From Patescibacteria group bacterium (GTDB lineage: Bacteria > Patescibacteriota > Minisyncoccia > 2-02-FULL-40-12 > GWA2-44-9), in the NCBI GenBank assembly GCA_038064515.1, contig JBBTSY010000005.1:3100-48092 (forward strand): DNA of 44,993 nt. Reading direction: 5' to 3'. The first letter of the stretch is position 1, and each line of letters opens with the position of its first letter. Made by a program: the position numbers and the translations under genes. The notes beneath the pieces are model-generated. The model saw only the letters and a program-made list of their open reading frames with translations, was not told the origin of the DNA and did not search any database. Of the stretch, positions 6,141 to 44,195 are shown in pieces.

Positions 6141-6506
6141 TTAGACTAATTCTTGGGCTAATGAGGCAATCGTCGCAAATCCTTTTTCCTTGATTTCCCG
6201 AGGAATCGGACCGAAGATACGACCGCCTTTTGGCTCTTTACCATCAAGAATTACAACTGCATTGTCATCAAAACGAATATAACTGCCGTCTTTGCGACGG
6301 AATGCTTGGCGCTGACGGACAACCACTGCTTTCAAGACATCTTTTTTCTTAACTGCCTTGCGTGGTTCTGCCACCTTCACCGAGATCACTACAATATCGC
6401 CGATTTGAGCGATTTTGCGTCGAGAACCGCCAAGCACCTTGAAAATACCGACCTTTTTTGCGCCAGAGTTATCTGCAACATTAACAATTGATCGTAGCTG
6501 TAGCAT
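6141..6506 (-). CDS. rplN: 50S ribosomal protein L14
   Basis: [19 protein letters not shown]-terminus and synteny. Confidence 0.96.
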
Positions 6507-12341: not shown

Positions 12342-13550
12342 CTATGCATGAATCTTAGTTACAACACCAGCACCTACAGTCTTGCCGCCCTCTCGAATCG
12401 CAAAGCGCTGTTTTTCTTCCATGGCAATCGGCACAATGAGCTTAACTTTGAGATTGGCAGTATCGCCAGGCATAATCATCTCGGTACCTTCGGGCAATAT
12501 TACTTCACCCGTTACATCCGTGGTTCGGAAGTAGAATTGAGGTTTATAGCCTTTGAAAAATGGGGTATGTCGGCCACCTTCTTCTTTTGTGAGGACGTAA
12601 ATTTCGGCATCGAATTCGGTGTGCGGTGAAGCAGAGCCGGGCTTTGCGAGCACTTGGCCGCGTTCAATGTCTTCTTTCTTTAGGCCGCGAACCAAGATAC
12701 CGGCGTTGTCGCCTGCCATACCCGAGTCGAGTTGCTTGTTAAACATTTCGATGCCCGTAATAACGGTTTTTACCGTTGGACGAATACCGACAAGCTCAAC
12801 TTCATCATTAATTTTAACCTGACCGCGTTCAATACGGCCCGTAACAACGGTACCGCGACCTTCAATTGAGAAGATATCTTCGATCGGCATCAAGAATGGC
12901 AGATCAATTTGGCGATCCGGATTGGGAATGTACGAATCGAGCGTATCTACTAGTTCTTTAACTTTGAGCGCCCATTTATCATCCTTAGAGGTAGCTTCCA
13001 GAGCTTTGAGGCCTGAACCACGGATAATAGGCGTAGTGTCGCCGGGAAATTTGTATTTTGTGAGAATTTCGCGAATTTCAGCTTCGACGAGATCTAACAT
13101 TTCTGGATCGTCAACTTGGTCAACCTTATTAAGAAAGACTACAAGGTAAGGCACGCCAACCTGACGGGCAAGCAAGATGTGTTCGCGAGTTTGAGGCATC
13201 GGACCATCGGAAGCGGCAACAACAATAATAGCGGCATCCATTTGAGCGGCACCGGTGATCATGTTCTTGATGTAGTCAGAGTGACCAGGAGCATCCACGT
13301 GCGCATAATGACGCAGTGGCGTCTCGTACTCGGAGTGATGCAATGAGATCGTGATACCTCGGGCTTTTTCTTCTGGAGCATTGTCGATACCATCGACGCC
13401 TTCTACGCGAGCGCTGTATCCAGCGTCCTTATTCATATCAAGGACGTGTAAAATAGCCGCGGTAAGAGTTGTCTTCCCGTGGTCTACGTGACCGATCGTT
13501 CCCACGTTGAGATGGGGTTTGGATCGATTAAATTTTGTTGCTTCTGCCAT
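12342..13550 (-). CDS. tuf: Elongation factor Tu
   Basis: [14 protein letters not shown] and NKVD GTPase motifs. 402 aa. Confidence 0.98.
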
Positions 13551-13775: not shown

Positions 13776-14087
13776 CTACGGGGCCTGCTTCTCGTCCTGC
13801 TCAATCTGGTCTTTCAGTGCCTGTATTTCCCGATTTAAGCGTTCCAGCGCTTCTACTTCCTGGGCGCTTAAAGCTGCTCGCACCGGCGCCTCTTCTGAAG
13901 CCTGCGGAACGGGGAAGTTCAGAGCTTCGGCATCGTTAGCCTTCTTTACTTTGACTTCCTGTTCCTTGGCTTGCGTCAGATTGCGGTATACCTGGTAATC
14001 CAGGATCACATACGATGGCTCCCCTTCATCCAAGATCAGAACTGATGTCGAGTTCTTAAGCAGGTCTTTTAATTCTCGAATATCCAC
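13776..14087 (-). CDS. Phd/YefM-like antitoxin-fold N-terminal domain fused to an acidic coiled-coil tail. GTG start.
   Basis: The N-terminus (STSVLILDEGEPSYVILDYQVYRNL) resembles the Phd/YefM pattern. No adjacent toxin gene was recognised. Confidence 0.5.
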   Translation of the reverse strand: MDIRELKDLLKNSTSVLILDEGEPSYVILDYQVYRNLTQAKEQEVKVKKANDAEALNFPVPQASEEAPVRAALSAQEVEALERLNREIQALKDQIEQDEKQAP

Positions 14088-14236
14088 TTCTTACACTCAC
14101 TGACGAGATATGGCTCGCGTTCCGCTTCACAATGTGCTGCGGAGAAGCTAAGTGCAACAGGTCAGGTTTAATCGGTATACAAATCAATTCCTCGCCATTC
14201 ACTCGGAACAACTCGTCTGTGAGTGTGAGGATCCAT
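14088..14236 (-). ncRNA. Copy A of a roughly 130-150-nt structured repeat element (family 2)
   Basis: A 14-bp closing stem joins 14094-14107 and 14212-14225. An inner stem gttccg/cggaac joins 14119-14124 and 14204-14209. It is homologous to 26612-26763, with compensatory changes between the copies. Confidence 0.55.
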
Positions 14237-14366: not shown

Positions 14367-15188
14367 TCAGCGCAAGAATATTTGACCGGCTTCGTTCCAG
14401 TCAGCCGCCTCTTTGACGGAGCTGGCATTTAAGGACCATTTGCCGGCCCCAGCGACCCACATCGCGATAACAACCCGGAGGTTATTGTCAACATCACGGG
14501 TATAGAACATGTTGGAAAGTCCCGACCCCCTCTCTATCAAGAGGATTCCGGCATTGCCGTGGAGTTGCCTGGAGAGCAACTCCCACAAGTGAACCAGCGA
14601 AATCTCAGCGCGGTTGCCCCGCATATCGAAAGTGTGAGCCTGCAAAGGGCCCCTGGAGAGCTTGTAGGCCTTCAGTGTTTGAGCTGGGACATTCTCCTCG
14701 GCCTTAGTTAGAAACCACTCCTTGAATCTATCAGACATGATTAAGTGATCCTTATTGGCACCGAATGTCTCCTCTGCTGAGAACTTCTCGACTGCCTGGA
14801 CAGATACACTGCCCATTAGCTCAAGATCTACGGGTTCGATATATGCTCTTTCCCTATGAAAGCTCTGATGTTTTTCATCTCCTGTCATCATTTTCTCGGC
14901 TTTCTGTAACTCTTCTGGCGTAGATTGGTCTTTTCCCTTAGTCTCTTGAGAAACATCGTCAATACTGGTCCAATATCCATCGATGTCATCTTGGGGTTCA
15001 TCCACGGCTCCAGGATCATGTTTTTGAGCTTCTTCTCTGGTAGCATACTCACCGATAACTACAGGGGTTTCTGGTCCATTTTTCCAGCGAACGTGCTTTA
15101 TGACTCTAAATCTTGGTTGTTCGACTTCTCCCGCCGATTTTACTTTTTCCTCTTTTTCTATTGGTCTTTTATATTTTTCTTCGGACAT
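14367..15188 (-). CDS. Hypothetical protein, 273 aa. N-terminal module shared with ORF 15278..16438. Unique C-terminal domain.
   Basis: 55 consecutive residues (KHVRWKNGPETPVV...SQETKGK) are identical to the neighbouring ORF. The C-terminal domain was not recognised. Confidence 0.6.
   Translation of the reverse strand: MSEEKYKRPIEKEEKVKSAGEVEQPRFRVIKHVRWKNGPETPVVIGEYATREEAQKHDPGAVDEPQDDIDGYWTSIDDVSQETKGKDQSTPEELQKAEKMMTGDEKHQSFHRERAYIEPVDLELMGSVSVQAVEKFSAEETFGANKDHLIMSDRFKEWFLTKAEENVPAQTLKAYKLSRGPLQAHTFDMRGNRAEISLVHLWELLSRQLHGNAGILLIERGSGLSNMFYTRDVDNNLRVVIAMWVAGAGKWSLNASSVKEAADWNEAGQIFLR
14931..15100. repeat. 170-bp perfect direct repeat, copy 1 (partner at 16184-16353)
   Basis: Compared base by base. 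It encodes the shared N-terminal module of the two paralogs. Confidence 0.9.
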
Positions 15189-15277: not shown

Positions 15278-16438
15278 TCACCGAATTATACCTTTTTTTA
15301 CAATTAACTCCACGACATCAAAAACTTGATCTGGCGATAAGCGAGAGCGAGAACCGTCAGCATTTCTAGGAGCACCACCAATAGTAGAGCCTCCTCCCCA
15401 TCCAGGTTCTAATTTATTTAACTCGTGCAAAATCGTGCCTTCTTTCGATACGGGGCCAACCGGAAAATTACTGACTAGCTCTGATTTCTTTGCGATAGTA
15501 TATGCGTAACTACCGTCTGCTTGCTGTTGCATAGCTACAGCCCTCGTATGACCTGCCTTATATATGAGATCGAAGACAAAATCATTTGATTGGGCCATAA
15601 TCCAATTAGTACCTTCTCTTACTACCTCGAAATTGCGAGCAATTTCTTGTTTCGTGTATTTAAAATTGCCGGCCACAAGATCGTCAAGATTCTTTAAGCA
15701 TTGCTCAAGGAGTGTGTTCAGATCGTCTTGACTGTATGTCCGATTTCTCCTTGCATCGCTTTCCGGTTTCATAACTCCTTTATAAAATGCGTCCGCTAGT
15801 TCTGCGTCGAGAGGCTCATAGGCTGGTCCATGAGCGTCGATTCCGCCAACCGACTCAACAAGCATTCTTATCTTCAGACTATGAGCTTCACTTGGGTGAC
15901 GTAGTAACCAGACTGATAAAACGGTATCCCCATCAATATCATTTACATAGACTTTGCTTTTTTCCGGTTCGAACCCTAGAAGCAAAGCATCGAGTACTTG
16001 TTGACATGTAGCACGAGTTATTTGACGATTAACTTTATCATGATGATCAAAGGAGAATCTGTTACGCCCCACATCAAACTCAGGCCCCTGAACATATCCG
16101 TCAAGAGCAACACTGTTCTCGGGCATGTTATCAAACTGTTCTGTTTTACCACGTGCAATGACTAGATCCACCAGACTCTCTCCTTTTCCCTTAGTCTCTT
16201 GAGAAACATCGTCAATACTGGTCCAATATCCATCGATGTCATCTTGGGGTTCATCCACGGCTCCAGGATCATGTTTTTGAGCTTCTTCTCTGGTAGCATA
16301 CTCACCGATAACTACAGGGGTTTCTGGTCCATTTTTCCAGCGAACGTGCTTTACTACCCTGAATTTAGGATGCTCAGCTTCTCTCGTACTAGTTTCCTCT
16401 TTTTTTTCAACGATTGATTCGGGTTTCTCGCTATTCAT
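15278..16438 (-). CDS. Hypothetical protein, 386 aa. Shared N-terminal module plus a C-terminal domain with DHH/DHHA1-like motifs.
   Basis: The motifs FSFDHHD, DIDGDT and GWGGGSTIGGAP recall DHH-family phosphoesterases. Motifs I and II are not evident. Confidence 0.6.
   Translation of the reverse strand: MNSEKPESIVEKKEETSTREAEHPKFRVVKHVRWKNGPETPVVIGEYATREEAQKHDPGAVDEPQDDIDGYWTSIDDVSQETKGKGESLVDLVIARGKTEQFDNMPENSVALDGYVQGPEFDVGRNRFSFDHHDKVNRQITRATCQQVLDALLLGFEPEKSKVYVNDIDGDTVLSVWLLRHPSEAHSLKIRMLVESVGGIDAHGPAYEPLDAELADAFYKGVMKPESDARRNRTYSQDDLNTLLEQCLKNLDDLVAGNFKYTKQEIARNFEVVREGTNWIMAQSNDFVFDLIYKAGHTRAVAMQQQADGSYAYTIAKKSELVSNFPVGPVSKEGTILHELNKLEPGWGGGSTIGGAPRNADGSRSRLSPDQVFDVVELIVKKGIIR
16184..16353. 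repeat. 170-bp perfect direct repeat, copy 2
   Basis: Identical to 14931-15100. Confidence 0.9.
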
Positions 16439-16509: not shown

Positions 16510-16565
16510 CCTAAAAACATAGCCGTTTTGGAGCTCTTTTCTTACAACAAGCGAGCCAATAGTTT

Positions 16566-16738
16566 TGAATCACTCCGGAGTATTTGATGAAATGAGCGAA
16601 AGTGAATAGCCGTAGTGGTGTTTCGAAGAAGGCCGCCCTAGTGGGCGGCCTTCTAGATGGAACGGAGGCGTGAGTGAGCTGAACGAATTTCTAAAATACG
16701 GAGATCGTGATGAAAAAACTATCGGCGAGCGGCTATTT
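16566..16738 (-). ncRNA. Copy E1 of a roughly 175-185-nt structured repeat element (family 3) abutting the fusA stop codon
   Basis: Homologous to 31469-31653. Conserved blocks are interleaved with a fully compensated variable hairpin (16627-16654). A long-range pairing joins 16605-16612 and 16730-16737. Confidence 0.55.
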
Positions 16739-18838
16739 CTTTCCTTCCATAATCTGCGTCGCGATATTGCCTGGAACAGGTTCATAGCGTTCAAACTCCA
16801 TCGTAAACGTACCCCGGCCCTCCGAGAAGGAGCGGATAGTGGTGGCGTATCCGAACATTTCTGAAAGCGGAACGCGCGAGTTAATAATCTTCAAGCCAAG
16901 TATACCTCGATCATCGACGCTCATAATCTGGCCACGGCGCGAGGAAAGATCGCCAGTAGTGGAACCAAGGAAATTGTCTGGAACGATAACTTCGACTTTC
17001 ATGATCGGTTCAAGGATAACCGGCTTGGCGCGCTTGACCGCTTCTTGAAATGCTATTGACCCAGCCACCTTGAAGGCGATTTCGGAAGAATCGACATCGT
17101 GATAAGAGCCATCGTAGACGGTGACTTTAATATCAACAACCGGGAATCCGGCGATAACGCCTTTATCAATGGCTTCACGGACACCTTTTTCAATGGCGGG
17201 GATGAATTCTTGAGGAATTGCGCCACCTTTGACGGCGTTCACAAACTCGAATCCTTCGCCGCGTTCTTTAGGCTCTACTCGCAACCAGCAATGGCCATAC
17301 TGACCGCGACCACCAGACTGCTTGATATATTTGCCCTCTGCCTGGGCTTTTGCGGAAATAGCTTCTTTATAGGCAACCTGCGGGCGACCAACATTTGCCT
17401 CGACGCCGAATTCACGTTTCATGCGCTCAACGAGAATTTCTAAGTGCAATTCACCCATGCCGGCGATGATCATTTCACTGGTCTCCTCATCACTCCGAAT
17501 ACGGAATGTAGGATCTTCATCGGAGAGTTTTTTCAAAGCCATACCCATCTTTTCCTGGTCAGCTTTAGTCTTTGGTTCAATGCGTAAGGAAATAACCGGT
17601 TCTGGAAAGTCGATACCTTCAAGAAGGATCGGATTATCGGGATCGCACAATGTATCCCCCGTTCGGGTATCTTTCAATCCGACTGTGGCGGCGATATTAC
17701 CCGCATAAATTTCTTTTACTTCTTCCCGATCATTGGCATGCATCCGGACAATGCGACTAATACGTTCCTGCTGGCCGCTACGCGTATTGAGGACATAGGA
17801 ACCGGCGGTAATCTTCCCGGAGTACACGCGGAAAAACGTCAAAGCGCCGACATACGGATCAGTCGCGGTTTTAAACGCCAGGGCGGTAAATGGAGCCGAA
17901 TCTTCGGAGGCAATCATTTTCTCTTCACCCGTTTTTTGAACCGTAGCTTTCGCGGGAGGAATATCCAATGGAGACGGGAGGTAGTAGGCCACCGCATCAA
18001 GCACGAGTTGAACGCCTTTATTTTTTAATGCCGAACCGCAAAGCACAGGGAAAATTTTATTTTCAAGCGTTGCCGCGCGAACAATACTTCGCAGACGAGA
18101 AACATCAATTTCTTTTCCCTCAAGGTATTCGGCCATAGCTTGATCGTCTTGCTCGACAATCTTCTCAATCATAGCCGCACGCTCTTTTTTCGCGGCTTCA
18201 ATGAGATGATCAGGAATTTCACCTTTGATGACCTTTTCGCCCTTATCTCCTAAAAACGTAACATATTCCATCGTCATTAGGTCAACGATGCCTTTGAATT
18301 GATCTTCATGACCATCCGGAATTTGAAGTTTCACGGCAAACGGAGAAAGACGTTCAAGGATCGACTGGTAGGAACGCTCAAACGAGGCACCCAAGCGGTC
18401 GAGTTTATTAATAAAGCAGATGCGCGGAACTTTGTAATCGTCCGCATAGCGCCAATTAGTTTCCGATTGAGGTTCCACGCCGGCAACGCCGTCAAACACT
18501 ACCACAGCACCGTCGAGTACGCGCAAAGATCGTTTTACTTCAATAGTAAAGTCGATGTGTCCCGGAGTATCAATGATGTTAAGCTTGACTTTGTCCGCAT
18601 CCTTATCTTTAGCATCGGTCGGGATCCAGTAGGCAGTCGTGGCGGCGGCAGTAATGGTGATACCGCGCTCTCGCTCCTGTTCCATCCAGTCCATAATCGT
18701 ATCGCCTTCGTGAACTTCACCGATTTTGTGAGAAATACCGGTATAAAAAAGAATACGCTCCGATGTCGTCGTTTTGCCTGCATCGATGTGCGCGATAACA
18801 CCGATATTGCGAATTTTTTCAATTGGATAGTCTGCCAT
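16733..18838 (-). CDS. fusA: Elongation factor G
   Basis: 701 aa with AHIDAGKTT and DTPGH motifs and a typical EF-G sequence. Confidence 0.98.
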
Positions 18839-21030: not shown

Positions 21031-21101
21031 CGGGCTGTGGTATAACGGTATTACGCATGGCTGGGGGTCATGTAACCCGGGTCCAACTCCCGGCAGCCCG
21101 A
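21031..21101 (+). tRNA. tRNA-Pro (anticodon GGG)
   Basis: Cloverleaf folded by hand. The acceptor stem is CGGGCUG/CAGCCCG with the C1-G72 pair and A73 typical of bacterial tRNA-Pro. The anticodon loop is CUGGGGG with G37. The T-loop UCCAACU has C at position 55, which is atypical. No CCA is encoded. Confidence 0.65.
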
Positions 21102-21104
21102 CAT

Positions 21105-21315
21105 CAGAAATAAAAATAGAGCCGTTCTGCGGCTCTATTTTTATTTCTGATGTCGCAATTACTGAACGCCGCTCGAACCTTTTTTGAACAAAACTCTTGA
21201 TTGCCGCGCTTCGCGCGGCAGGAACGAAATCTAACGCTCGGGCGGGCAAAAAGAAAGGGGGTTGGGGGGAATGAATTTTTGCCCGCCCTCGCTTTCCGCC
21301 GCCGCCGAATTTCGT
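21105..21315. repeat. Left copy of a perfect 211-bp inverted repeat
   Basis: It is the reverse complement of 23334-23544, checked base by base. It contains three hairpins: a 20-25-bp AU-rich stem, tgccgcgc-TTCG-gcgcggca, and gggcgggcaaaaa..tttttgcccgccc with a C/G-rich loop. Confidence 0.9.
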
Positions 21316-21473: not shown

Positions 21474-22568
21474 ATGAACGGAAAAATTACATTTAGCAAT
21501 TCCAGTCTTGAGTCTATTAACGGGATAGATTATTTACGCTTGAGAGAGGAAAGTCATTACAAAACCGGCCTTGCCGCCGGAAATCTTTTTGTTAAATCAA
21601 ACTATAAAATAATCAGGCTTTTAAAAAATCCTTTCGTAAATATAATTTTGTGGTTTCTTCGCCTTAAATACGAAAAGAAAATTCCAGAAGTCCGCATTCC
21701 AAAAGAATATCAAGATGAACTTAGAGGTTGTGCGGAGGCGACAAAAATTCCATATAAATATCTACTCTTAATAAATTTAATCTACGAAATTAGGGGGTGT
21801 TCCGGTTTTGTTTTTTTTAATCCTGATGGATCCTTACTTCTTGGACACAATACTGATGTCTCAAAAATGTTGGCAAAGCTTGCTCTTCGTTACATGAAGC
21901 CGCTCGTAACGGATGTATCAATCCCTGGAAAGAATAATTTTGTTCATGTTGCTATGCCTCTCATTTTGGGGGCGATAAATGGTTTTAATGATAAAGGCAT
22001 AGCAGTATCTTCACATGATGCTGGAGGCATCTACGCTAAAGTTGTGAAAAATAACACCAGCACTTCGTGTCTTGTAAAAATGGTTCTAGAAAATGCCGAG
22101 AGTTTAGCTGAAGTTCAAAAGACAGCACAGGAAAATCTTGCTTATTATCCTGGAATTATGATTGTTGCGAGTGCGCGTGAGCGTAAAGCTTCTATACTTG
22201 AAGCTTATCCGTCAGATTTTGATTTTGTGTCTTTCACAAACACTTCTTATATTTTTTCTGCAAATCACTATCAGAGCGACAAAATGAGAAAATATCATAG
22301 AGAAGTTAAAAAGGGTAGTTTGGATAGATTAACTTGCCTACAAGGAAGTTTATCTGGAAAAAATATTTTGTCGGTTCAAGAAGCTATCCAAATTTTGAAA
22401 GACCACAGAAATGGCATACACCGCGACACAACCGGATATTCAATAGCGAATATAGGGACATTTCAAAGTTTTATTTTTGATGTAACGAGGAGTAAAGTTT
22501 ATATTTCAAATGGTAAAAAATTACCTGTTCCTTTGCACGGTAATTTTGTCAAAATCAGTGCTTTATGA
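21474..22568 (+). CDS. Ntn-hydrolase, peptidase C45 / acyltransferase-like protein
   Basis: GCSGFVFFNPDGSLLLGHNTD resembles the catalytic-Cys block of the C45 / choloylglycine-hydrolase-type family. Confidence 0.6.
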   Translation: MNGKITFSNSSLESINGIDYLRLREESHYKTGLAAGNLFVKSNYKIIRLLKNPFVNIILWFLRLKYEKKIPEVRIPKEYQDELRGCAEATKIPYKYLLLINLIYEIRGCSGFVFFNPDGSLLLGHNTDVSKMLAKLALRYMKPLVTDVSIPGKNNFVHVAMPLILGAINGFNDKGIAVSSHDAGGIYAKVVKNNTSTSCLVKMVLENAESLAEVQKTAQENLAYYPGIMIVASARERKASILEAYPSDFDFVSFTNTSYIFSANHYQSDKMRKYHREVKKGSLDRLTCLQGSLSGKNILSVQEAIQILKDHRNGIHRDTTGYSIANIGTFQSFIFDVTRSKVYISNGKKLPVPLHGNFVKISAL

Positions 22569-23333: not shown

Positions 23334-23544
23334 ACGAAATTCGGCGGCGGCGGAAAGCGAGGGCGGGCAAAAATTCATTCCCCCCAACCCCCTTTCTTTT
23401 TGCCCGCCCGAGCGTTAGATTTCGTTCCTGCCGCGCGAAGCGCGGCAATCAAGAGTTTTGTTCAAAAAAGGTTCGAGCGGCGTTCAGTAATTGCGACATC
23501 AGAAATAAAAATAGAGCCGCAGAACGGCTCTATTTTTATTTCTG
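23334..23544. repeat. Right copy of the perfect 211-bp inverted repeat
   Basis: Reverse complement of 21105-21315. Confidence 0.9.
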
Positions 23545-26616: not shown

Positions 26617-26763
26617 CCTTACACTCATTGACGAGATATGGCTCGCGTTCCGTCTCACATAGTGGTGCGGAAAAGCTTTGCCATACAGATCAGCATTATG
26701 ATGATTCAAACAAATCCTCGCCATTCACTCGGAACAACTCATCAATGAGTGTCAGGATCCATG
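26612..26763 (-). ncRNA. Copy B of the family-2 structured repeat element, wedged between the two comEC-derived ORFs
   Basis: A closing stem joins 26622-26635 and 26738-26751. An inner stem joins 26647-26652 and 26730-26735. The comEC stop codon (26752-26754) abuts the stem. Confidence 0.55.
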
Positions 26764-28356: not shown

Positions 28357-31203
28357 TCAATTGCAGGCACCGGTTGTAGCGCCACAACTTGGGCAGGCAT
28401 AGCAGGATCCGGCTCGAAACATGAGTGTCCCACATTGACATACAGGAGCATCAGATACAAAGGTAGCGCGAGACTTCGCGCTTGTGGAAGCATTCCTAGA
28501 TGGAGCAACGAGACCGGAAAGAACATTATCAGTTTTTGAGGTCGGCTCTGGCTGAGATATCGCCACCGTAGTAACGGGCATAATCTCTATGTCATGCGTT
28601 AGTCCGAATATTTCTTCTCGATCTTCCAGATTTAAGAACTTCATGCCCAGATATCGAAAAACGTAGTCGATAATTGATTTAGCCGTTGGAATATTCGTAT
28701 TGCCGGTGAATCCCGCGGGACTAAAGCTCGTATCTTTAAACTTCCGAACAAGAACCTTCAACGGCACACCGGATTGCAAACACATTGAGATAAGGATGGC
28801 GATCGTATCAAGTAAACCAGAAAGTGTGCTACCTTCTTTAGCAATGGAGAGAAATGTCTCGCCGGGCTGTTGAGTGTCAGGATAAAGGCCAACAGTCAAA
28901 TAGCCATCATGGCCGCCGACACTGAACTTATGAGTTATGGCCGGACGTTCTTCGGGCAATTTCACTCGGGTATAGCCGTTAATGTGCTCAACTAGCCTAT
29001 TTTCATCCTTTGCCGTGTTAAGCGGCTGTATACCCTTTGATCCGTCGCGATAAACCGCGATAGCCTTAAGGCCAAGCTTCCAACCTTGAATAAATGCATC
29101 TCGGATGTCATCAACGGTAGCATTGTTCGGCAGATTAATCGTTTTTGAAATAGCGCCGGAGATGAATGGTTGAGCGGCACTCATCATGCGCAGGTGGCCC
29201 ATATAACTGATACTGCGCTCGCCATTGACCGCCTTGAATGAGCAGTCAAAAACCGGAAGATGCTCCTCTTTAAGCCATGGTGCTCCTTCAATCGTATCTT
29301 TTTCAAGGAGATACGCACTGATATCCTTAATCTGCTCGGCGGGATAACCGAGATTTTTAAGCGCCGCCGGCACCTGATTATTCGCCAACTTGAGCACGCC
29401 GCCACCGACAAGTTTTTTATACGCTACCAGCGCGAGACCTGGTTCCACGCCCGTCGTATCGCAATCCATCATAAAAGCGATCGTTCCCGTCGGAGCCAAT
29501 ACGGTAACCTGCGAGTTTCTGACGCCTACTGATCTACCCAGCTCAAGCGCTTCGTGCCATACCACGCGGGAGGCTACCGCGAGATCGGGATACTTTGCGC
29601 CGACAGCAGACTTTATAGTCTGCGAATAAAGAATTTCAGCTTCATTAAGATGCATGGCCAGTACGTTAAGCATTGGTTCGCGATTCTTTTCAAAGCCGGC
29701 GAATGGGCCCTTTCGATCAGCGAGTAATCCTGAAAAGCGATAGGCTTCGCCGCACATCAATGACGTAATCTGACTGGCGAGCAATCGTCCGTCTTCGGAA
29801 TCATACGGTAAACCCCAGGTCATCAAGAGCGCCCCCAGATTGGCATAACCCAATCCAAGTTCGCGAAAATCATTGGCGTTGCGGTCAATCTTTTCCGTCG
29901 GATAGGAAGAGCGGCTCACAATAATATCTTGGGCCGTAATGATAGTATCCACTGCACGCTTGAATTGCTCCACGGCGAATGTGCCGTCTTCATTGGCAAA
30001 TTTTAATAGGTTTAATGACGCAAGGTTGCAGGCGCTGTTGTCTAAGTGCATATATTCACTGCACGGGTTCGATGCAGTGATAGCACCGGTATTCGAGCAG
30101 GTGTGCCAGCGATTAATCGTATCATGATACTGCATGCCGGGATCGGCGCTCGCCCACGCCGCTTCGGCGATCCAATTCATTACTTCGCGAGCCTTAATAC
30201 GCTCCATGGATTCTCCGGTAGTGACCGCTTTTAGGTCCCACATGTCATCATTTTCGACGGCCCGCATAAAATCATCCGTCACGCGTACCGAGTTATTTGC
30301 ATTTACATACGGCAAGAGGGTGTAAGGGCTGAAAAGATCGCCGTCCAGGGAATTCTTAAACCCGGAAGCCACCAACACCTGCGTCATCTGCTCGATGTAA
30401 TGCTTGGCATAGATGAAATCTTTAATATCCGGATGATCGACATTCATGACCACCATCTTTGCCGCGCGACGAGTTGTGCCGCCGGAACGAATCGTATTAG
30501 CAACACCATCGGCGCCCTTCATGAATGAAACGGGACCTGATGAGTGCCCCCCTTTCGAAAGAGACTCTTTCGAAGATCGAAGATTGGAAACGTTTAAACC
30601 TGCACCGGAGCCGTGTTTGAAAATCATTCCCTCATCCTTGTACCACTGCATGATTGATTCCATAGTGTCCTCGACGGCAAGAATGAAACAGGCGGAACAC
30701 TGCGGCTTTTCATAGATGCCGACGTTAAACCACACCGGACTATTAAATGCAAAAAATTGATTCACAAGCAGCCACGTGAGATCAAGCGTAAAATTCGTGG
30801 CATCTTCAGGAGATGCAAAGTAACCGTCCTGCAAACCCCAGTACCCGATCGTTTGAGCAACACGATCGATCATCTGCTTCACGCTGTATTCGCGTTCGGG
30901 CGCCGTAATTTTCCCGCGAAAGTATTTGGAAGCAACAATATCGGTAGCGGTTTGAGACCAGAATGCCGGCACCTCCACGTCATGCTGTTCAAAAACAATA
31001 GTACCGTCTGCTTTCGCAATCTTCGCGGTGCGCAGTTCCCATGTGATGTCATCATAAGGATGACCGGTACCCTGGCCGGACAGGCCAAAAATTCGCTCCC
31101 AGGTCATGCCCGAAGACATCTGATGCATAGAGTCATCGCTTTTCTTATGATTGTTTACATCGAGACGCTGCTGACTTGGAAACACTGAAGTTCCGTTATT
31201 CAT
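28357..31203 (-). CDS. nrdJ: Class II (adenosylcobalamin-dependent) ribonucleotide reductase
   Basis: 948 aa with typical NrdJ blocks (NPCSEY, TNLC-type region) and a C-terminal CxxC..CxxC ribbon. The start codon is uncertain because there is no nearby SD. Confidence 0.88.
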   Translation of the reverse strand: MNNGTSVFPSQQRLDVNNHKKSDDSMHQMSSGMTWERIFGLSGQGTGHPYDDITWELRTAKIAKADGTIVFEQHDVEVPAFWSQTATDIVASKYFRGKITAPEREYSVKQMIDRVAQTIGYWGLQDGYFASPEDATNFTLDLTWLLVNQFFAFNSPVWFNVGIYEKPQCSACFILAVEDTMESIMQWYKDEGMIFKHGSGAGLNVSNLRSSKESLSKGGHSSGPVSFMKGADGVANTIRSGGTTRRAAKMVVMNVDHPDIKDFIYAKHYIEQMTQVLVASGFKNSLDGDLFSPYTLLPYVNANNSVRVTDDFMRAVENDDMWDLKAVTTGESMERIKAREVMNWIAEAAWASADPGMQYHDTINRWHTCSNTGAITASNPCSEYMHLDNSACNLASLNLLKFANEDGTFAVEQFKRAVDTIITAQDIIVSRSSYPTEKIDRNANDFRELGLGYANLGALLMTWGLPYDSEDGRLLASQITSLMCGEAYRFSGLLADRKGPFAGFEKNREPMLNVLAMHLNEAEILYSQTIKSAVGAKYPDLAVASRVVWHEALELGRSVGVRNSQVTVLAPTGTIAFMMDCDTTGVEPGLALVAYKKLVGGGVLKLANNQVPAALKNLGYPAEQIKDISAYLLEKDTIEGAPWLKEEHLPVFDCSFKAVNGERSISYMGHLRMMSAAQPFISGAISKTINLPNNATVDDIRDAFIQGWKLGLKAIAVYRDGSKGIQPLNTAKDENRLVEHINGYTRVKLPEERPAITHKFSVGGHDGYLTVGLYPDTQQPGETFLSIAKEGSTLSGLLDTIAILISMCLQSGVPLKVLVRKFKDTSFSPAGFTGNTNIPTAKSIIDYVFRYLGMKFLNLEDREEIFGLTHDIEIMPVTTVAISQPEPTSKTDNVLSGLVAPSRNASTSAKSRATFVSDAPVCQCGTLMFRAGSCYACPSCGATTGACN

Positions 31204-31468
31204 GTGGGGCGCGAAGGAGAAGAGGAAAGAGATGCGCCGCTCGTGCGAATCTCTTTACCCTCCTGCTTATTTAAACAATCCGTTGGTAGATGAATTTAAC
31301 CATCTTTTGACCGTGCCCACAATGTTGATAACCCTCCGTTCGGCATTTCCTCCGAATTTATGCGCCCCCGCTGACCATTTCAGCTCGCTTCACTCCTCCT
31401 AAGCGAGCGTGCGCTTTGAGAAATCCTCGCCGAAAAGGAGCGAAGCAAGCCAGCGAGCTCCCGTCTTC

Positions 31469-31653
31469 TGAATCACTTCGCGAGGTATTTGATGAAATAA
31501 GCGAAGTCGAATAGCCGAAGTGGTGCTTCGACGTAAAGAAGCTTCCTTATGGAAGCTTCTTTACTAGGTGGAACGGAGGTGTAGATGAGACGAGCGAACC
31601 TTTCCAAATACCGAGGCAGTTGTGATGAAAAAGATGGTAGCGAGCGGCTATTT
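31469..31653 (-). ncRNA. Copy E2 of the family-3 structured repeat element abutting the ftsZ stop codon
   Basis: See copy E1. The variable hairpin is 31533-31564. The long-range pairing joins 31510-31517 and 31645-31652. Confidence 0.55.
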
Positions 31654-32799
31654 GTTCATTTTGCGCCGTATAAACGCCGGAATATCAAAATCTTTTTCAT
31701 CTTCGATCGAGGGATCGATGATTTCTTTCACCTCTTTTACGGGTTCACGCTCCATAATATCTTGTTTCTTGATAGCGTTATCAAAGAGGCTTAGGCCGCC
31801 ACCATTATATTTTGCAGACGGATTTGAAGGTGATACGGGATAGGTATTCGTAAAACCAGTCGCTACGACAGTGATCTTGATCTCCCCTTTCTTGAGCTTG
31901 TCATCAACGACAGCGCCGAAGATGACTTTTGCATCGGGATCAATGTGTTCAGTGATAATCCGTGCCGCTTCGCTGATTTCTGCCATTGCCATGTCGGTAC
32001 CGCCGGACACGTTAAAAAGAACGCCGCGAGCGCCGTCGATGGAGAGTTCCAGGAGCGGAGAGTTGATCGCCATACGAGCCGCCTCTACGGCTCGATCTTC
32101 GCCGGAAGCTCTCCCGATGCCCATGAGCGCCGATCCAGAGTTAGACATAACCGCCTTCACGTCGGCAAAGTCGGTATTAACAATACCAGGGATAGTGATG
32201 AGATCAGAAATACCTTGGACGCCCTGTCGAAGGACGTCATCAACTACTGCGAATGATTCGAGTAACGGAGTCTTGCGATCAATGATGGAAAGGAGTCGGT
32301 CATTAGGGATCGTGATAAGCGCGTCAACCTTATCGCGCAGAAGCTGAAGACCTTCTTCGGCCACGCGAGAGCGTTGAGCTCCCTCAAAGCTAAAGGGCCT
32401 GGTTACGACTGCCACGGTCAGTGCGCCGGATTCTCGAGCCATGTCAGCGATAACCGGTGCGGCGCCTGTTCCGGTACCTCCACCCAACCCTGTCGCAATA
32501 AAAACCATATCGGCTCCCTTAAGAGCGGTAAGAATGTCTTCTCGGGTCTGTTCGGCGGCTTCGCGACCGATGCTCGGATTCATGCCAGCGCCAAGGCCTC
32601 GCGTGAGACTTTTGCCAATGTGAATCTTTACCGGAGCGTTTGAATTGTGGAGTGACTGGGCATCGGTATTTACGGCAATAAATTCAACGCCGTGAATCCG
32701 TGCTTCGATCATTCGCTCTAGGGCATTACCGCCCGAGCCGCCAAGACCTAACACTTTAATGCGGGCAAACGTTTCAAATTGAGGTTTAACTTGGGGCAT
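31648..32799 (-). CDS. ftsZ: Cell division protein FtsZ
   Basis: [11 protein letters not shown] signature. 383 aa. Confidence 0.98.
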
Positions 32800-41388: not shown

Positions 41389-41479
41389 TGGTGGACTATT
41401 CTTAAAGTAGTTCGGACGCATTTCGCCGCCTGCGGCGGCGGGGGTTTGGCCAAAAATTCCGAACCGAAATCCTGAATTT
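41389..41479. repeat. attL-like site: 8-bp core TGGTGGAC plus 83-bp arm X
   Basis: Identical in inverted orientation to 42480-42570. The core equals the tRNA-Ala 3' end. Confidence 0.8.
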
Positions 41480-41512
41480 TGACAATTTCAAGTTTTTCTT
41501 TGGCGGCAAATT

Positions 41513-42379
41513 CTAGTTACAGAAATTTTCATTAAATGAAAATTTCTCGCCAAGTGAACGAAGGAGTTCGGGATAATCCATTTTACCAGAAGAGAAAGGC
41601 CCCTTACTTAGAACAAAGACCCTGTCTCCCTGAGTACAGCCGAGCAATAGGAATAATTCTGTATCCGGCGCGGGAGGTGTTGTCCTGTTCGATAGCAGTA
41701 ATGCCTGAACTTTTTGAGAAGATATGGTGACTACCTCTTTATTCTTAAAATTCCCAAAGAAACCACTTTGTGCCCACTGCAAATATTCTCTCGAGGCATT
41801 CCCGGCATCAAATTGATTTTTTGCAATTGTGAGCAATTTATCATCCATGGATTTCATAAATTGCTCTAATGATTGACCGTGTTGTTTGGGCAACACAACA
41901 GCATCAATTTCGCGAAGTAACTCAAGAACTGTGGGTGGCTCACCGAGGTAACCGAATTGATTTAATTTGTCGCTCGATGTCTTCGTAATTTCATTCCAGC
42001 GTTCAGGAGAAACAAGAGCATAATGAGCTTGTACACCAAATTGATCGTCAAGAAACCACGCTAGACCACCTTGGCCATAGAACAATTTGGAGGATTCCTT
42101 CTTAGTAACATCAGTGGGCAAATCAGCAATCGAAAATACTCGCCATGCTGGCCCTAGGTCAAGAGCTAGTTCCCCTAAAGAAAAATCTACGCGAACAGAC
42201 GAATTACCCACTTGATAGGAAAGTTGGTTGGGAAAAATTTTATTGGATTCTTTTTGTTTTACCCACCAATAAATTCCACCGCCAACAATTATGGCGGTCA
42301 AAATAACAGTAACAACTGTAACAAAAGGCAAAGAATTATTTTTAGGAGTAGGGCCAATCTGATTTATTTCTTGTTCCAT
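41513..42379 (-). CDS. Hypothetical membrane-anchored protein, 288 aa (element cargo)
   Basis: N-terminal TM helix. No motif recognised. Confidence 0.6.
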   Translation of the reverse strand: MEQEINQIGPTPKNNSLPFVTVVTVILTAIIVGGGIYWWVKQKESNKIFPNQLSYQVGNSSVRVDFSLGELALDLGPAWRVFSIADLPTDVTKKESSKLFYGQGGLAWFLDDQFGVQAHYALVSPERWNEITKTSSDKLNQFGYLGEPPTVLELLREIDAVVLPKQHGQSLEQFMKSMDDKLLTIAKNQFDAGNASREYLQWAQSGFFGNFKNKEVVTISSQKVQALLLSNRTTPPAPDTELFLLLGCTQGDRVFVLSKGPFSSGKMDYPELLRSLGEKFSFNENFCN

Positions 42380-42479
42380 AGTATTATGATTAAAAATGTT
42401 AATTTATGAAAAATTTTCTTTTCCCAAAATTAAAATGCAGTCCGAGCCGATATTTTTATCAGGTTCTTTGGCAGTTTTT

Positions 42480-42663
42480 AAATTCAGGATTTCGGTTCGG
42501 AATTTTTGGCCAAACCCCCGCCGCCGCAGGCGGCGAAATGCGTCCGAACTACTTTAAGAATAGTCCACCAGACAGGAAATTGCAAGCAAGGGGCATTCGC
42601 CTCGTTTTGCTCGGCGACCAAATCGTAAGGTTTTCTGGGCGAAAAAATCAGTTGGCGATTCTG
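42480..42663. repeat. Inverted attP-like junction: arm X', core GTCCACCA (42563-42570), arm Y'
   Basis: 42480-42570 is the reverse complement of 41389-41479. 42563-42663 is the reverse complement of 44073-44173. Confidence 0.85.
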
Positions 42664-42698
42664 CATTTTGGGAAAAGAAAATTTTTAGTCAAAGCCAT

Positions 42699-44195
42699 AT
42701 GAAATATATACTTTACGCTCGCAAGAGTACCGAGGACGAGGATGGGCAGATTTTGAGCATTGAGGCCCAAATCTTTGAATTAAAAGAATTTGCCGCCAAA
42801 GAAAAACTTGAAATTGTCGCTTCCTTTCAGGAAGCAAAAACTGCCAAAGAACCTGGGCGAATGAAATTCGCAGAAATGTTGTCATTGATTGAGAAAGGAA
42901 AGGCGGATGGCATACTTTCATGGAATCCTGATCGTCTTGCTCGCAATTCAGTAGACGGCGGGAAAATAATTCACATGATAGATCGCGGCTTGATTAAAGC
43001 GTTGAAGTTCCCAACGTTCTGGTTTGAACCGACACCACAGGGACTTTTCATGCTTCAAATTGCTTTTGGACAAAGTAAGTATTATGTAGATGCTCTGCGT
43101 GAAAATGTTACTCGTGGTATGAGGCAAAAAGTGAGAAACGGCGTTTGGCCAAGCAAAGCGCCACTCGGCTATCTCAATAATCCCAAAACGCGAGGAATTG
43201 ATGTTGATACCGAGAAAGCTTCTGAAGTTAAGAAAGTTTTTGATCTCTACGCCACTGGAAACTACAATCTCCGAGAATTAGCCGAGTGGTGTAAGCGAGT
43301 AAATCTCAAAAGCAATTTGGGCAATGACATTTCAATTGGAAAAGTCCATGAGCTTTTACAAAATGTCTTCTACCTTGGCCTTATGAAATACAAGGGCGAA
43401 CTCTACGAAGCCACTCACAAGCCAATCATTTCAAAGAAACTTTTTGATAAGGTGCAAGTAATTATGCGAGAAAAAGGTAAGCCGCAAAAAGTGAAGAAAC
43501 ATAATTTTACTTTTCTTGGACTTATGAAATGCCCTTGTTCGGCAGCAATAACCGCCGAAAAGAAGATCAAGCCAAGTGGCAGAGAATATGTTTATTACCG
43601 ATGCACAAAAAAGAAAGGCCCATGCCAGGAAAAGTATTTTTTGCGGCAGGAAGAATTGTATCAGCAAGTTAGATCATTTCTTCAAAAAGTTTCTTTGCCG
43701 AGCCAAGACACCGAAAAAGTTTTGCGCGAGCTGGAAAAAGAAGAATCGCAAGCGAAAGAACAAGCTAAAATCACTGTTCAAAATCTCAAAACCAAGTTAG
43801 CCGAAGTCGGGCTAAAATTGGAAAAACTTCTCGATGTGTATTTGGAAGAAACCATAACCGCCGAGGAATACGCCTCACGCAAAGAAAAACTGGTCAAGCA
43901 AAAAGTCGGTTTACAAGAACAAATCCGAGATTTTGAACAGAAAGGGTTGTCATGGCTCGAACCGGCTCGTGAGTTCGTTTTATCGTTAAATCAAGCCGCT
44001 AAAATGCTTGAGTCCGAAAACAAAACCGAGATGACAACATTTCTTAAAAATATCGGCTCGGACTGCATTTTACAGAATCGCCAACTGATTTTTTCGCCCA
44101 GAAAACCTTACGATTTGGTCGCCGAGCAAAACGAGGCGAATGCCCCTTGCTTGCAATTTCCTGTCTGGTGGACCCTAGCGGATTCGAACCGCTGA
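42699..44195 (+). CDS. Large serine recombinase
   Basis: Resolvase-type N-terminus (YARKSTEDEDGQILSIEAQ), a recombinase domain, a Cys-rich zinc ribbon (CPCS...YYRCTKKKGPC) and a coiled coil. The last 41 codons run through arm Y, the core, and the antisense strand of tRNA-Ala. Confidence 0.88.
   Translation: MKYILYARKSTEDEDGQILSIEAQIFELKEFAAKEKLEIVASFQEAKTAKEPGRMKFAEMLSLIEKGKADGILSWNPDRLARNSVDGGKIIHMIDRGLIKALKFPTFWFEPTPQGLFMLQIAFGQSKYYVDALRENVTRGMRQKVRNGVWPSKAPLGYLNNPKTRGIDVDTEKASEVKKVFDLYATGNYNLRELAEWCKRVNLKSNLGNDISIGKVHELLQNVFYLGLMKYKGELYEATHKPIISKKLFDKVQVIMREKGKPQKVKKHNFTFLGLMKCPCSAAITAEKKIKPSGREYVYYRCTKKKGPCQEKYFLRQEELYQQVRSFLQKVSLPSQDTEKVLRELEKEESQAKEQAKITVQNLKTKLAEVGLKLEKLLDVYLEETITAEEYASRKEKLVKQKVGLQEQIRDFEQKGLSWLEPAREFVLSLNQAAKMLESENKTEMTTFLKNIGSDCILQNRQLIFSPRKPYDLVAEQNEANAPCLQFPVWWTLADSNR
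44073..44173. repeat. attR-like site: 93-bp arm Y plus core TGGTGGAC
   Basis: Identical in inverted orientation to 42563-42663. The core is the 3' end of tRNA-Ala. Confidence 0.85.

Follow-up and report, generated by a model that had tools for sequence, protein, structure and literature searches.

Genomic setting

The window analysed here, i.e., the whole stretch of 44,993 nt, belongs to a patescibacterial (CPR) genome close to Candidatus Yanofskybacteria. Among GTDB species representatives, the best matches to its FtsZ are Yanofskybacteria and Paceibacterota MAGs at identities of 76% or less; an exact protein look-up of its EF-G found none on record, and the contigs nearly identical to the window come from the Hainich and other groundwater metagenomes. 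Related contigs and loci that were compared with the window carry labels of the form L###, with L005 and L008 being strain contigs. Two genes of the window, fusA (EF-G; stop codon at 16733-16735) and ftsZ (stop codon at 31648-31650), are each followed by one copy of a structured element, termed E1 and E2, respectively. The features concerned are as follows.

12342..13550, minus strand: tuf (gene call)
16551..16730, minus strand: element E1, 180 nt from box to box, 3' flank of fusA (alignment, models, rod fold)
16733..18838, minus strand: fusA, EF-G (gene call)
28357..31203, minus strand: nrdJ (gene call)
31375..31450, minus strand: separate long hairpin, distinct from the element, that follows E2 directly on the gene strand (folding)
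31453..31645, minus strand: element E2, 193 nt from box to box, 3' flank of ftsZ (alignment, models, rod fold)
31648..32799, minus strand: ftsZ (gene call)
42699..44195: large serine recombinase gene (gene call)

The fusA-tuf and ftsZ-nrdJ spacers contain different, unrelated small ORFs in every lineage. A conserved ORF of approximately 105-120 aa (MDIRELKDLLKNSTSVLILDDGEPSYVILDY...) always lies between the variable island and tuf (13776..14087 in the window; also in L097, L100, and L108), and its N-terminus may adopt a Phd/YefM-type antitoxin fold. In some EF-G orthologues of relatives (P0133, P0216, P0229, and P0237), a variable insertion of ~20 residues interrupts the G domain after ...AYW.PT.

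Extent and copy number of the element

A sequence-only reading of the window had described a repeat at 16566-16738 and 31469-31653, with copies aligning over their whole length and sharing a series of conserved blocks. The alignment bears this out, all of the listed blocks being present in both copies, and the independent homologue in L108 (139 bits) rules out chance as the source of the similarity; the element is a genuine structured repeat with variable but paired helices. The repeat is real, but its left edge had been placed about 15 nt too far in and is found at a GCGAGC box. Boxes of this kind, read from the sequence, delimit both copies:

16551..16556: distal GCGAGC box of E1 (GCTCGC on the gene strand)
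16725..16730: stop-proximal GCGAGC box of E1, followed by GG and then the fusA stop codon
31453..31458: distal GCGAGC box of E2
31640..31645: stop-proximal GCGAGC box of E2, followed by GG and then the ftsZ stop codon

The same box flanks L095 and L005. On the gene strand, E1 and E2 start 2 nt past the stop codon (2-3 nt across the family). GCTCG was considered as a general post-stop motif and rejected, as it occurs at just 3 of the 48 window genes.

Sequence and model searches identified E1 and E2 as the only copies in the window, and their identity of only 66-78% shows that the pair did not arise by recent transposition. No conserved ORF runs through the element in E1, E2, or L108; a mini-ORF of the form SD-ATG-AAA-stop, an MKK... 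ORF leading out of the right end, and in-frame readthrough peptides were all considered as candidates, and all are lost in L108. The separate hairpin at 31375..31450 has a fold energy of -41.9 kcal/mol on the gene strand versus -30.0 kcal/mol on the other strand.

A rod-like fold with conserved and variable parts

In each copy, the left 45 nt form an imperfect inverted repeat of the right 45 nt, so that either strand folds into a single rod. Consensus fold energies are -61 kcal/mol for the plus strand and -46 kcal/mol for the gene strand, and z-scores of single-sequence folding relative to shuffles range from -3.8 to -5.1. When E1, E2, and L108 were aligned together with the L005 variant, RNAalifold returned one long imperfect hairpin of 56 pairs as the main fold, not a set of local stems. 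Within the rod alignment, 96.8% of the cells are paired, and 16 double-sided pair changes were counted against 7.1 +/- 1.7 in column shuffles (0 of 500 reached 16), a count that draws on three independent lineages that align well and on a structure derived from the same sequences. Sliding the partners by 1-3 columns left just 1-3 double-sided changes. The double changes are concentrated in three places, namely the outer helix, the tip hairpin, and an interior helix formed by columns 55-61 with 134-140.

16559..16566: outer helix arm of E1, ATAGTTTT, pairing with 16715-16722 (folding, alignment)
16715..16722: partner arm of the E1 outer helix, AAAACTAT, pairing with 16559-16566
31460..31468: outer helix arm of E2, CCCGTCTTC, pairing with GAAGACGGG
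31629..31638: partner arm of the E2 outer helix (31630-31638 in the pairing with 31460-31468) together with a hypervariable patch (strain comparison, folding)
16627..16654: tip hairpin of E1, 12 perfect pairs and a 4-nt loop (folding)
31533..31564: tip hairpin of E2, 14 perfect pairs and a 4-nt loop (folding)

The outer helix, which the sequence-only reading missed, comprises 8-12 bp between each box and the conserved GAATCAC/GTGATGA blocks. Its sequence differs among E1, E2, L108, L095, and L100 with pairing retained; in the strain contig L005 the E2 helix is perfect, and in L108 Watson-Crick pairs take the place of the inner G.A loop, so that the outer stem is perfect over 17 bp. As the sequence-only reading had described, the tip hairpin is perfectly paired in both copies, with 12 bp (16627-16654) and 14 bp (31533-31564), although the two sequences are unrelated; 9 of the 14 pairs of this helix (helix 8) are changed on both sides. 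The interior of the rod contains sequence-conserved, largely unpaired blocks, such as CCUCCGUUCCA on the gene strand.

Other proposed structural details fared less well once L108 was included. The stem CGAAA/UUUCG (CGAAG/CUUCG in E2) is present, but it offers a single covarying pair, one of its pairs is broken in L108, and an equally good rival local hairpin uses the same 3' strand. A long-range pairing of AATAGCCG with CGGCTATT is indeed invariant between E1 and E2 but weakened in L108, where the counterparts AGCAGGCG and CGGTTATT show two mismatches, two wobbles, and no compensating change. Two UGAUGA motifs that had been called conserved are both lost in this best homologue, in which TTGATGAAAT has become TTGTAGAAAT and GTGATGAAAAA has become GGATTCAGAAAA.

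The distribution of identity along the element is uneven. Between the window and L108, the fusA genes are 76% identical at the DNA level and 45.8% identical at third-codon positions; the left and right arms of the element retain 83% and 73% identity, respectively, and the outer helix and tip hairpin are at 22-56%, i.e., at chance identity. Within the window, E1 and E2 show the same pattern (arms 81% and 72%, tip 25%). From this contrast, the copies are old; their interior blocks keep their sequence, and the outer helix and tip hairpin keep only their pairing. Such a pattern would be the signature of a functional folded nucleic acid or, alternatively, of a continually homogenised repeat.

Homologues and element-free relatives

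Relatives were searched with a covariance model built solely from the window copies and one strain variant, L108 being left out. In L108 (EF-G 87% identical), this model recovered a homologue right after the fusA stop codon, here TAA, in the same orientation (139 bits, E 2e-33). A diverged homologue follows fusA in L100 (EF-G 90%; E 3.5e-4; outer helix CCTCAGTCTTTGCA/TGCAAAGACTGAGG), and a 111-nt version follows ftsZ in L095/L096 (FtsZ 89%), where the gene end reads AAA TGA TC GCTCGC - TATCTCGA ... TCGAGATA - GCTCGC. Several closer relatives are devoid of the element. After fusA it is absent from L097-L099 (EF-G 98%; flank AAATAGTTGCTCGTC...) and L101 (EF-G 99%; flank AAATAGTTGCGGGG...); after ftsZ, an ordinary terminator takes its place in L092-L094 (FtsZ ~100%), L103 (88%), and L105 (82%), with unrelated small ORFs as well in L092 and L103. 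The position and orientation of the element are thus kept in other species, and the element is lost or replaced in some close relatives.

Beyond these loci, no copy was detected in 80 ftsZ loci of GTDB representatives (1.2 Mb; nhmmer, short-word blastn, and models R1 and R2), none in 1.37 Mb of DNA from relatives other than at fusA and ftsZ ends, and no match in plasmid and phage collections. Visual inspection had suggested resemblances in L009, L010, and L013, downstream of ftsZ, but homology was not confirmed there. The pattern TTGATGAAAT-N9-13-AATAGCCGNAGTGG gave no matches in viral contigs or in genome contigs and a single chance match in metagenome contigs, within a high-GC glycosyltransferase gene (L001).

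The stop codons belong to the genes

Both fusA and ftsZ of the window end AAA TAG CCG CTC GC, as the sequence-only reading had noted. From this it had concluded that the element supplies the last Lys codon and the TAG stop of both genes, a conclusion that fails on the very ground the reading had named against itself, namely orthologues whose ends are the same when the element is absent: the proteins end ...EGKK* and ...RRKMNK* with or without it. All 15 EF-G orthologues inspected end ...EGKK, and FtsZ orthologues end ...IRRKMNK* or a close variant. The stop codon adjoining homologous elements is TAG in the window and L100, TAA in L108 and L008, and TGA in L095. Although L008 has E2 and codes for an identical FtsZ protein, its sequence there is AAATAAGGCGCTCGC, and TAAGGCGC is common to L008 and the element-free L092. 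Constant protein ends, varying stop codons, and element-free relatives together assign the Lys codon and the stop to the genes. We infer that the shared AAATAGCCGCTCGC consists of the genes' own Lys-stop followed by the first box of the element; the 'CC' and TAG of the window ftsZ were probably homogenised towards the E1 version by gene conversion. The attractive idea of a repeat that donates stop codons to essential genes is therefore wrong and is corrected here.

Indications of DNA-level dynamics at both loci

Between the window and L005, positions 31204-32397 contain just four differences (31629, 31630, 31635, and 31638), all within E2 and embedded in an otherwise identical stretch of about 1.8 kb. 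The L005 states at the four sites produce the perfect outer helix of E2, and L008 carries a third combination. Template switching at the DNA level, within a quasi-palindrome, could account for this cluster of differences. In each of four independent k=31 assemblies, a break lies exactly 31 nt beyond the ftsZ stop codon. The first box marks where homology to element-free relatives stops, and homology picks up again at a conserved terminator tail; in L100, two inverted family members, L100a and L100b, lie on either side of the island. Hairpins of 55-150 nt framed by GCGAG ... CGAGC also occur at other intergenic sites in either orientation (35 versus 11-16 in shuffles), as at 21237-21291 and 23358-23412 of the window and in L092, L089, L010, and L067. 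Given these indications, part of the apparent covariation could be templated instead of selected.

Comparison with known families

The sequence-only reading had been unable to assign the element to an RNA family, and the Rfam scan likewise gave no family match. At the gathering threshold, Rfam reported only three tRNAs in the whole window, and E-value scans of E1, E2, and L108 returned only generic-hairpin matches of 14-22 bits. A full-text literature search retrieved nothing relevant to the element; to our knowledge, the non-coding elements of candidate-phyla-radiation bacteria are almost uncharted.

Described classes of mobile or folded repeats were also considered and set aside. The element is not a typical MITE: conserved terminal inverted repeats are absent, the outer-helix arms being at chance identity among E1, E2, and L108 and different again in L095 and L100, and the window and the loci contain no transposase or autonomous partner. 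It does not match REP/REPIN sequences, as its ends are direct CGAG boxes instead of inverted GTAG/CTAC and no Y1 transposase (RAYT) was seen in the window or the loci. Box C/D or k-turn RNAs are not indicated, the RUGAUGA-type boxes being altered in L108 and the G.A loops having no 3-nt bulge. IS200/IS605 end-derived elements and guide RNAs (PATE, omega/reRNA) are likewise not supported by a single foldback with no TnpA/TnpB genes in the window and no Rfam match.

Imperfect non-coding palindromes 100-200 nt long occur in intergenic regions after genes in enterobacteria (REP/BIME, ERIC/IRU, YPAL) and in Neisseria (Correia elements); they are co-transcribed with the upstream gene as long hairpins that affect mRNA stability or termination. 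Their ends are conserved in sequence, they are present in tens to hundreds of copies per genome, and, where known, they duplicate TA or another defined target or come with a RAYT transposase of their own. E1 and E2 resemble these enterobacterial and Neisseria palindromes in being non-coding long foldbacks just after genes, with presence/absence differences between relatives, but they differ in that the outermost helix is different in each copy and in being old, two in 45 kb, and at orthologous sites. RNase III processing stems such as phage T7 R1.1 and that of the E. coli rplL-rpoB spacer lie between highly expressed cistrons and leave a stable 3' hairpin on the upstream message; the element would share their long imperfect double-stranded stem with internal loops, whereas those stems measure ~20-30 bp and are not repeated between unrelated genes. 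Small RNAs derived from 3' UTRs, e.g., CpxQ and SroC, provide a third comparison. Like them, the element has a conserved single-stranded segment, the anti-Shine-Dalgarno-like CCUCCGUUCCA, directly 5' of a perfect hairpin in what would be the 3' UTR of a strongly expressed gene; unlike in them, the conserved sequence runs ~80 nt past the hairpin and pairs back with the 5' part, and the hairpin has no clear U-tract. By analogy, the transcribed enterobacterial and Neisseria palindromes, or an intercistronic processing stem, would come closest in mode of action. The element is genuine, conserved, and structured, belongs to no catalogued family, and is restricted to a small CPR clade.

Interpretation and alternative explanations

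We tentatively read the element as a lineage-restricted, structured 3'-UTR hairpin of Yanofskybacteria-like bacteria (Patescibacteria/CPR), with E1 and E2 as old paralogues, an interpretation that we hold with less than even confidence. In L108, a canonical bidirectional terminator (6371-6385) with a T-run lies ~70 nt beyond the element, and a promoter matching 10 of 12 positions (6394-6427) lies downstream of the whole element, so that the entire rod should belong to the fusA 3' UTR; the T-run and the -35 region are recognisably conserved in the window (GTTTTTAGGTTGACTT). An intrinsic-terminator test gave no terminator-like site at E1 and a weak sub-stem match at E2. The element would accordingly be transcribed as the 3' UTR of the upstream gene, and the rod would act as a 3'-end structure, i.e., as a barrier to 3' exonucleases and/or a site of double-strand processing. 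In this role it would fix where the fusA or ftsZ message ends, stabilise that end, and shield the message from the hypervariable small-ORF cassettes downstream. Several findings count against a 3'-end RNA: the element is dispensable, being absent from close relatives (EF-G 98-99%; FtsZ ~100%), L100b is a diverged copy that stands inverted on the far side of the island, and the clustered strain differences could reflect template switching with no selection on RNA.

The main rival, unlikely in our estimation yet serious, is a non-autonomous mobile or recombining DNA quasi-palindrome (MITE/REPIN-like) that uses a CTCG-type target next to gene ends and owes its arm complementarity to hairpin-templated repair, not to selection on RNA. 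Presence/absence polymorphism among close relatives speaks for it, as does the GCGAGC box (or its CGAG core), which flanks every copy in direct orientation: both boxes of L100a carry the matching variant CTCGT, and the element-free L097 has a single GCTCGT there, as expected for target duplication. The same box occurs at all loci, though, and no clean pair of empty and filled sites was recovered. The L100 island between two inverted copies, the four clustered strain differences, all of which improve arm complementarity, the four assemblies that break 31 nt past the ftsZ stop, and the status of both loci as hot spots with different small-ORF islands per lineage fit this explanation as well. Against it, neither a transposase nor a related full-length element is present in the window or at the loci, the would-be terminal inverted repeat differs in every copy, unlike transposase-recognised ends, and the copies are old, occupying orthologous sites in fixed orientation in species with saturated synonymous sites. 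Their number is also low, at two in 45 kb and, in the 1.37 Mb from relatives, at fusA and ftsZ ends only. Similar hot-spot evidence bears on a folded recombination site (attC/attachment-like) that marks the capture of small-ORF cassettes downstream of fusA and ftsZ, which we consider improbable. Integron attC sites have short conserved boxes, structure-conserved helices, and a variable centre, and they lie at the 3' end of ORFs, often with stop codons in or near the site. E1 and E2 are comparable in having conserved short boxes around structure-only helices, 3' of ORFs and beside variable ORF cassettes; unrelated ORF islands follow or replace the element in every lineage at both loci, and the window encodes a large serine recombinase (42699..44195). 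The boxes are, however, direct and not inverted (GCGAGC ... GCGAGC, lacking RYYYAAC/GTTRRRY core sites), the interior blocks retain their sequence, there is no integron integrase and no array of copies after successive island ORFs, and the sole recombinase is the serine enzyme 11 kb away; moreover, the far-side island boundaries in the window have no matching box, and the islands bring their own promoters.

Two further alternatives concern RNA. An RNA from the opposite strand (plus strand of the window), convergent with fusA and ftsZ and ending in a terminator formed by the rod and a U-rich run (the complement of the Lys codons and stop), appears about as improbable as the recombination site. 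The strand comparison speaks for it and correspondingly weakens the gene-strand reading: the opposite strand folds more stably in 9 of 10 family members, by 6-20 kcal/mol, and the facing GCGAGC boxes, which present U.C/C.U mismatches on the gene strand, can pair there as G-C, C-G, G.A, A.G, G-C, C-G, with a second tandem G.A between the outer helix and AUCAC/GUGAU. The rod is then followed by UAUUUCUUU in E1, UAUUUGUUCAUUUU in E2, and UAUUUUUU in L108. On the other side, no sigma-70-like promoter was found upstream on this strand at E1, E2, or L108, the z-scores are no better than those of the gene strand (-3.8 against -4.9 to -5.1), the inner G.A loop gives way to Watson-Crick pairs in L108, and the wobble-pair asymmetry between the strands is weak (33 versus 20). 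A trans-acting regulatory RNA, 6S-like or of another type, released from the upstream mRNA by processing is very improbable. The element's length of ~190 nt, its rod-like shape, closing and tip helices that vary around conserved blocks in a large non-complementary interior, and the presence of two paralogues in one genome recall such an RNA, but no 6S or other Rfam model scores (for 6S, no match at E up to 10 in a 361-nt search or at E up to 1 in the other scans), the tip helix has just 12-14 bp, and close relatives lack the element at both loci, with none detected in more distant relatives.

Whichever molecule is involved, a covariation-supported element of ~190 nt, constrained well above synonymous-site saturation, adjoins two of the most highly expressed core genes and two integration hot spots for lineage-specific ORFs. 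An RNA 3'-end module would show how tiny genomes protect core messages from neighbouring variable DNA, and a recombination signal would explain the origin of the ORF islands. More speculatively, and with rather low probability, the element would stand for an undescribed class of folded nucleic-acid signals in CPR bacteria, acting either as a cassette-capturing recombination hot spot or as a shared post-transcriptional control that couples translation-elongation and cell-division genes; such a class may take the form of a conserved-box, variable-helix rod placed exactly at the stop codons of core genes.

Other repeats in the window and its relatives

Several further repeats were observed. A 211-nt inverted repeat, 100% identical (21105-21315 and 23334-23544), brackets a 2-kb segment beside tRNA-Pro (21031-21102) that contains an AAT/peptidase-C45-like gene (21474..22568) and a 170-aa ORF; each arm includes a GCGAG...CGAGC-framed hairpin and a terminal 26-bp palindrome, and the whole may represent a composite mobile unit or a segment capable of inversion, or else be an artefact of assembly. 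At 41389-44173, 100% identical inverted repeats of 101, 91, 34, 28, and 22 nt are interlaced around the serine recombinase gene, the 3' end of which overlaps tRNA-Ala, an arrangement suggestive of inversion variants driven by the recombinase or of a chimeric assembly; in the related contig L002 the pieces of this region are joined differently.

Within the fusA-tuf island, a direct repeat of 204 nt with 95% identity (14930-15133 and 16183-16386) forms the 5' ends of two ORFs (14367..15188 and 15278..16438) whose first 89 residues are 79% identical and for which Pfam gave no match. Nearby, ~147 nt at 14090-14236, upstream of the small conserved ORF before tuf, duplicate 26618-26762 at 80-89% identity; the latter comprises the 3' end of comEC and the start of the next gene, which has a metallo-beta-lactamase fold, and the segment is also found in relatives. 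Small island ORFs in L089 (11690-11750 and 12130-12190) and L103 (4735-4795) are preceded by a repeated ~60-nt leader, GGCTCACCACACGAGCCTCCGTTCTCTAGCTCATCACATCCCGTGGTGAGCTGAAGGA, a candidate cis-regulatory leader in which either of two 5' segments can pair with a single 3' strand and a CCUCC block precedes the Shine-Dalgarno sequence; the first half of the leader is similar to GCTCACTCACGCCTCCGTTCCATCTAG, a block within E1. Finally, L100 has a rod-like element of ~180 nt after nrdJ (630-809), the tip of which is a canonical bidirectional terminator (A6-stem-T6), suggesting that these genomes commonly contain long foldbacks organised around a terminator.
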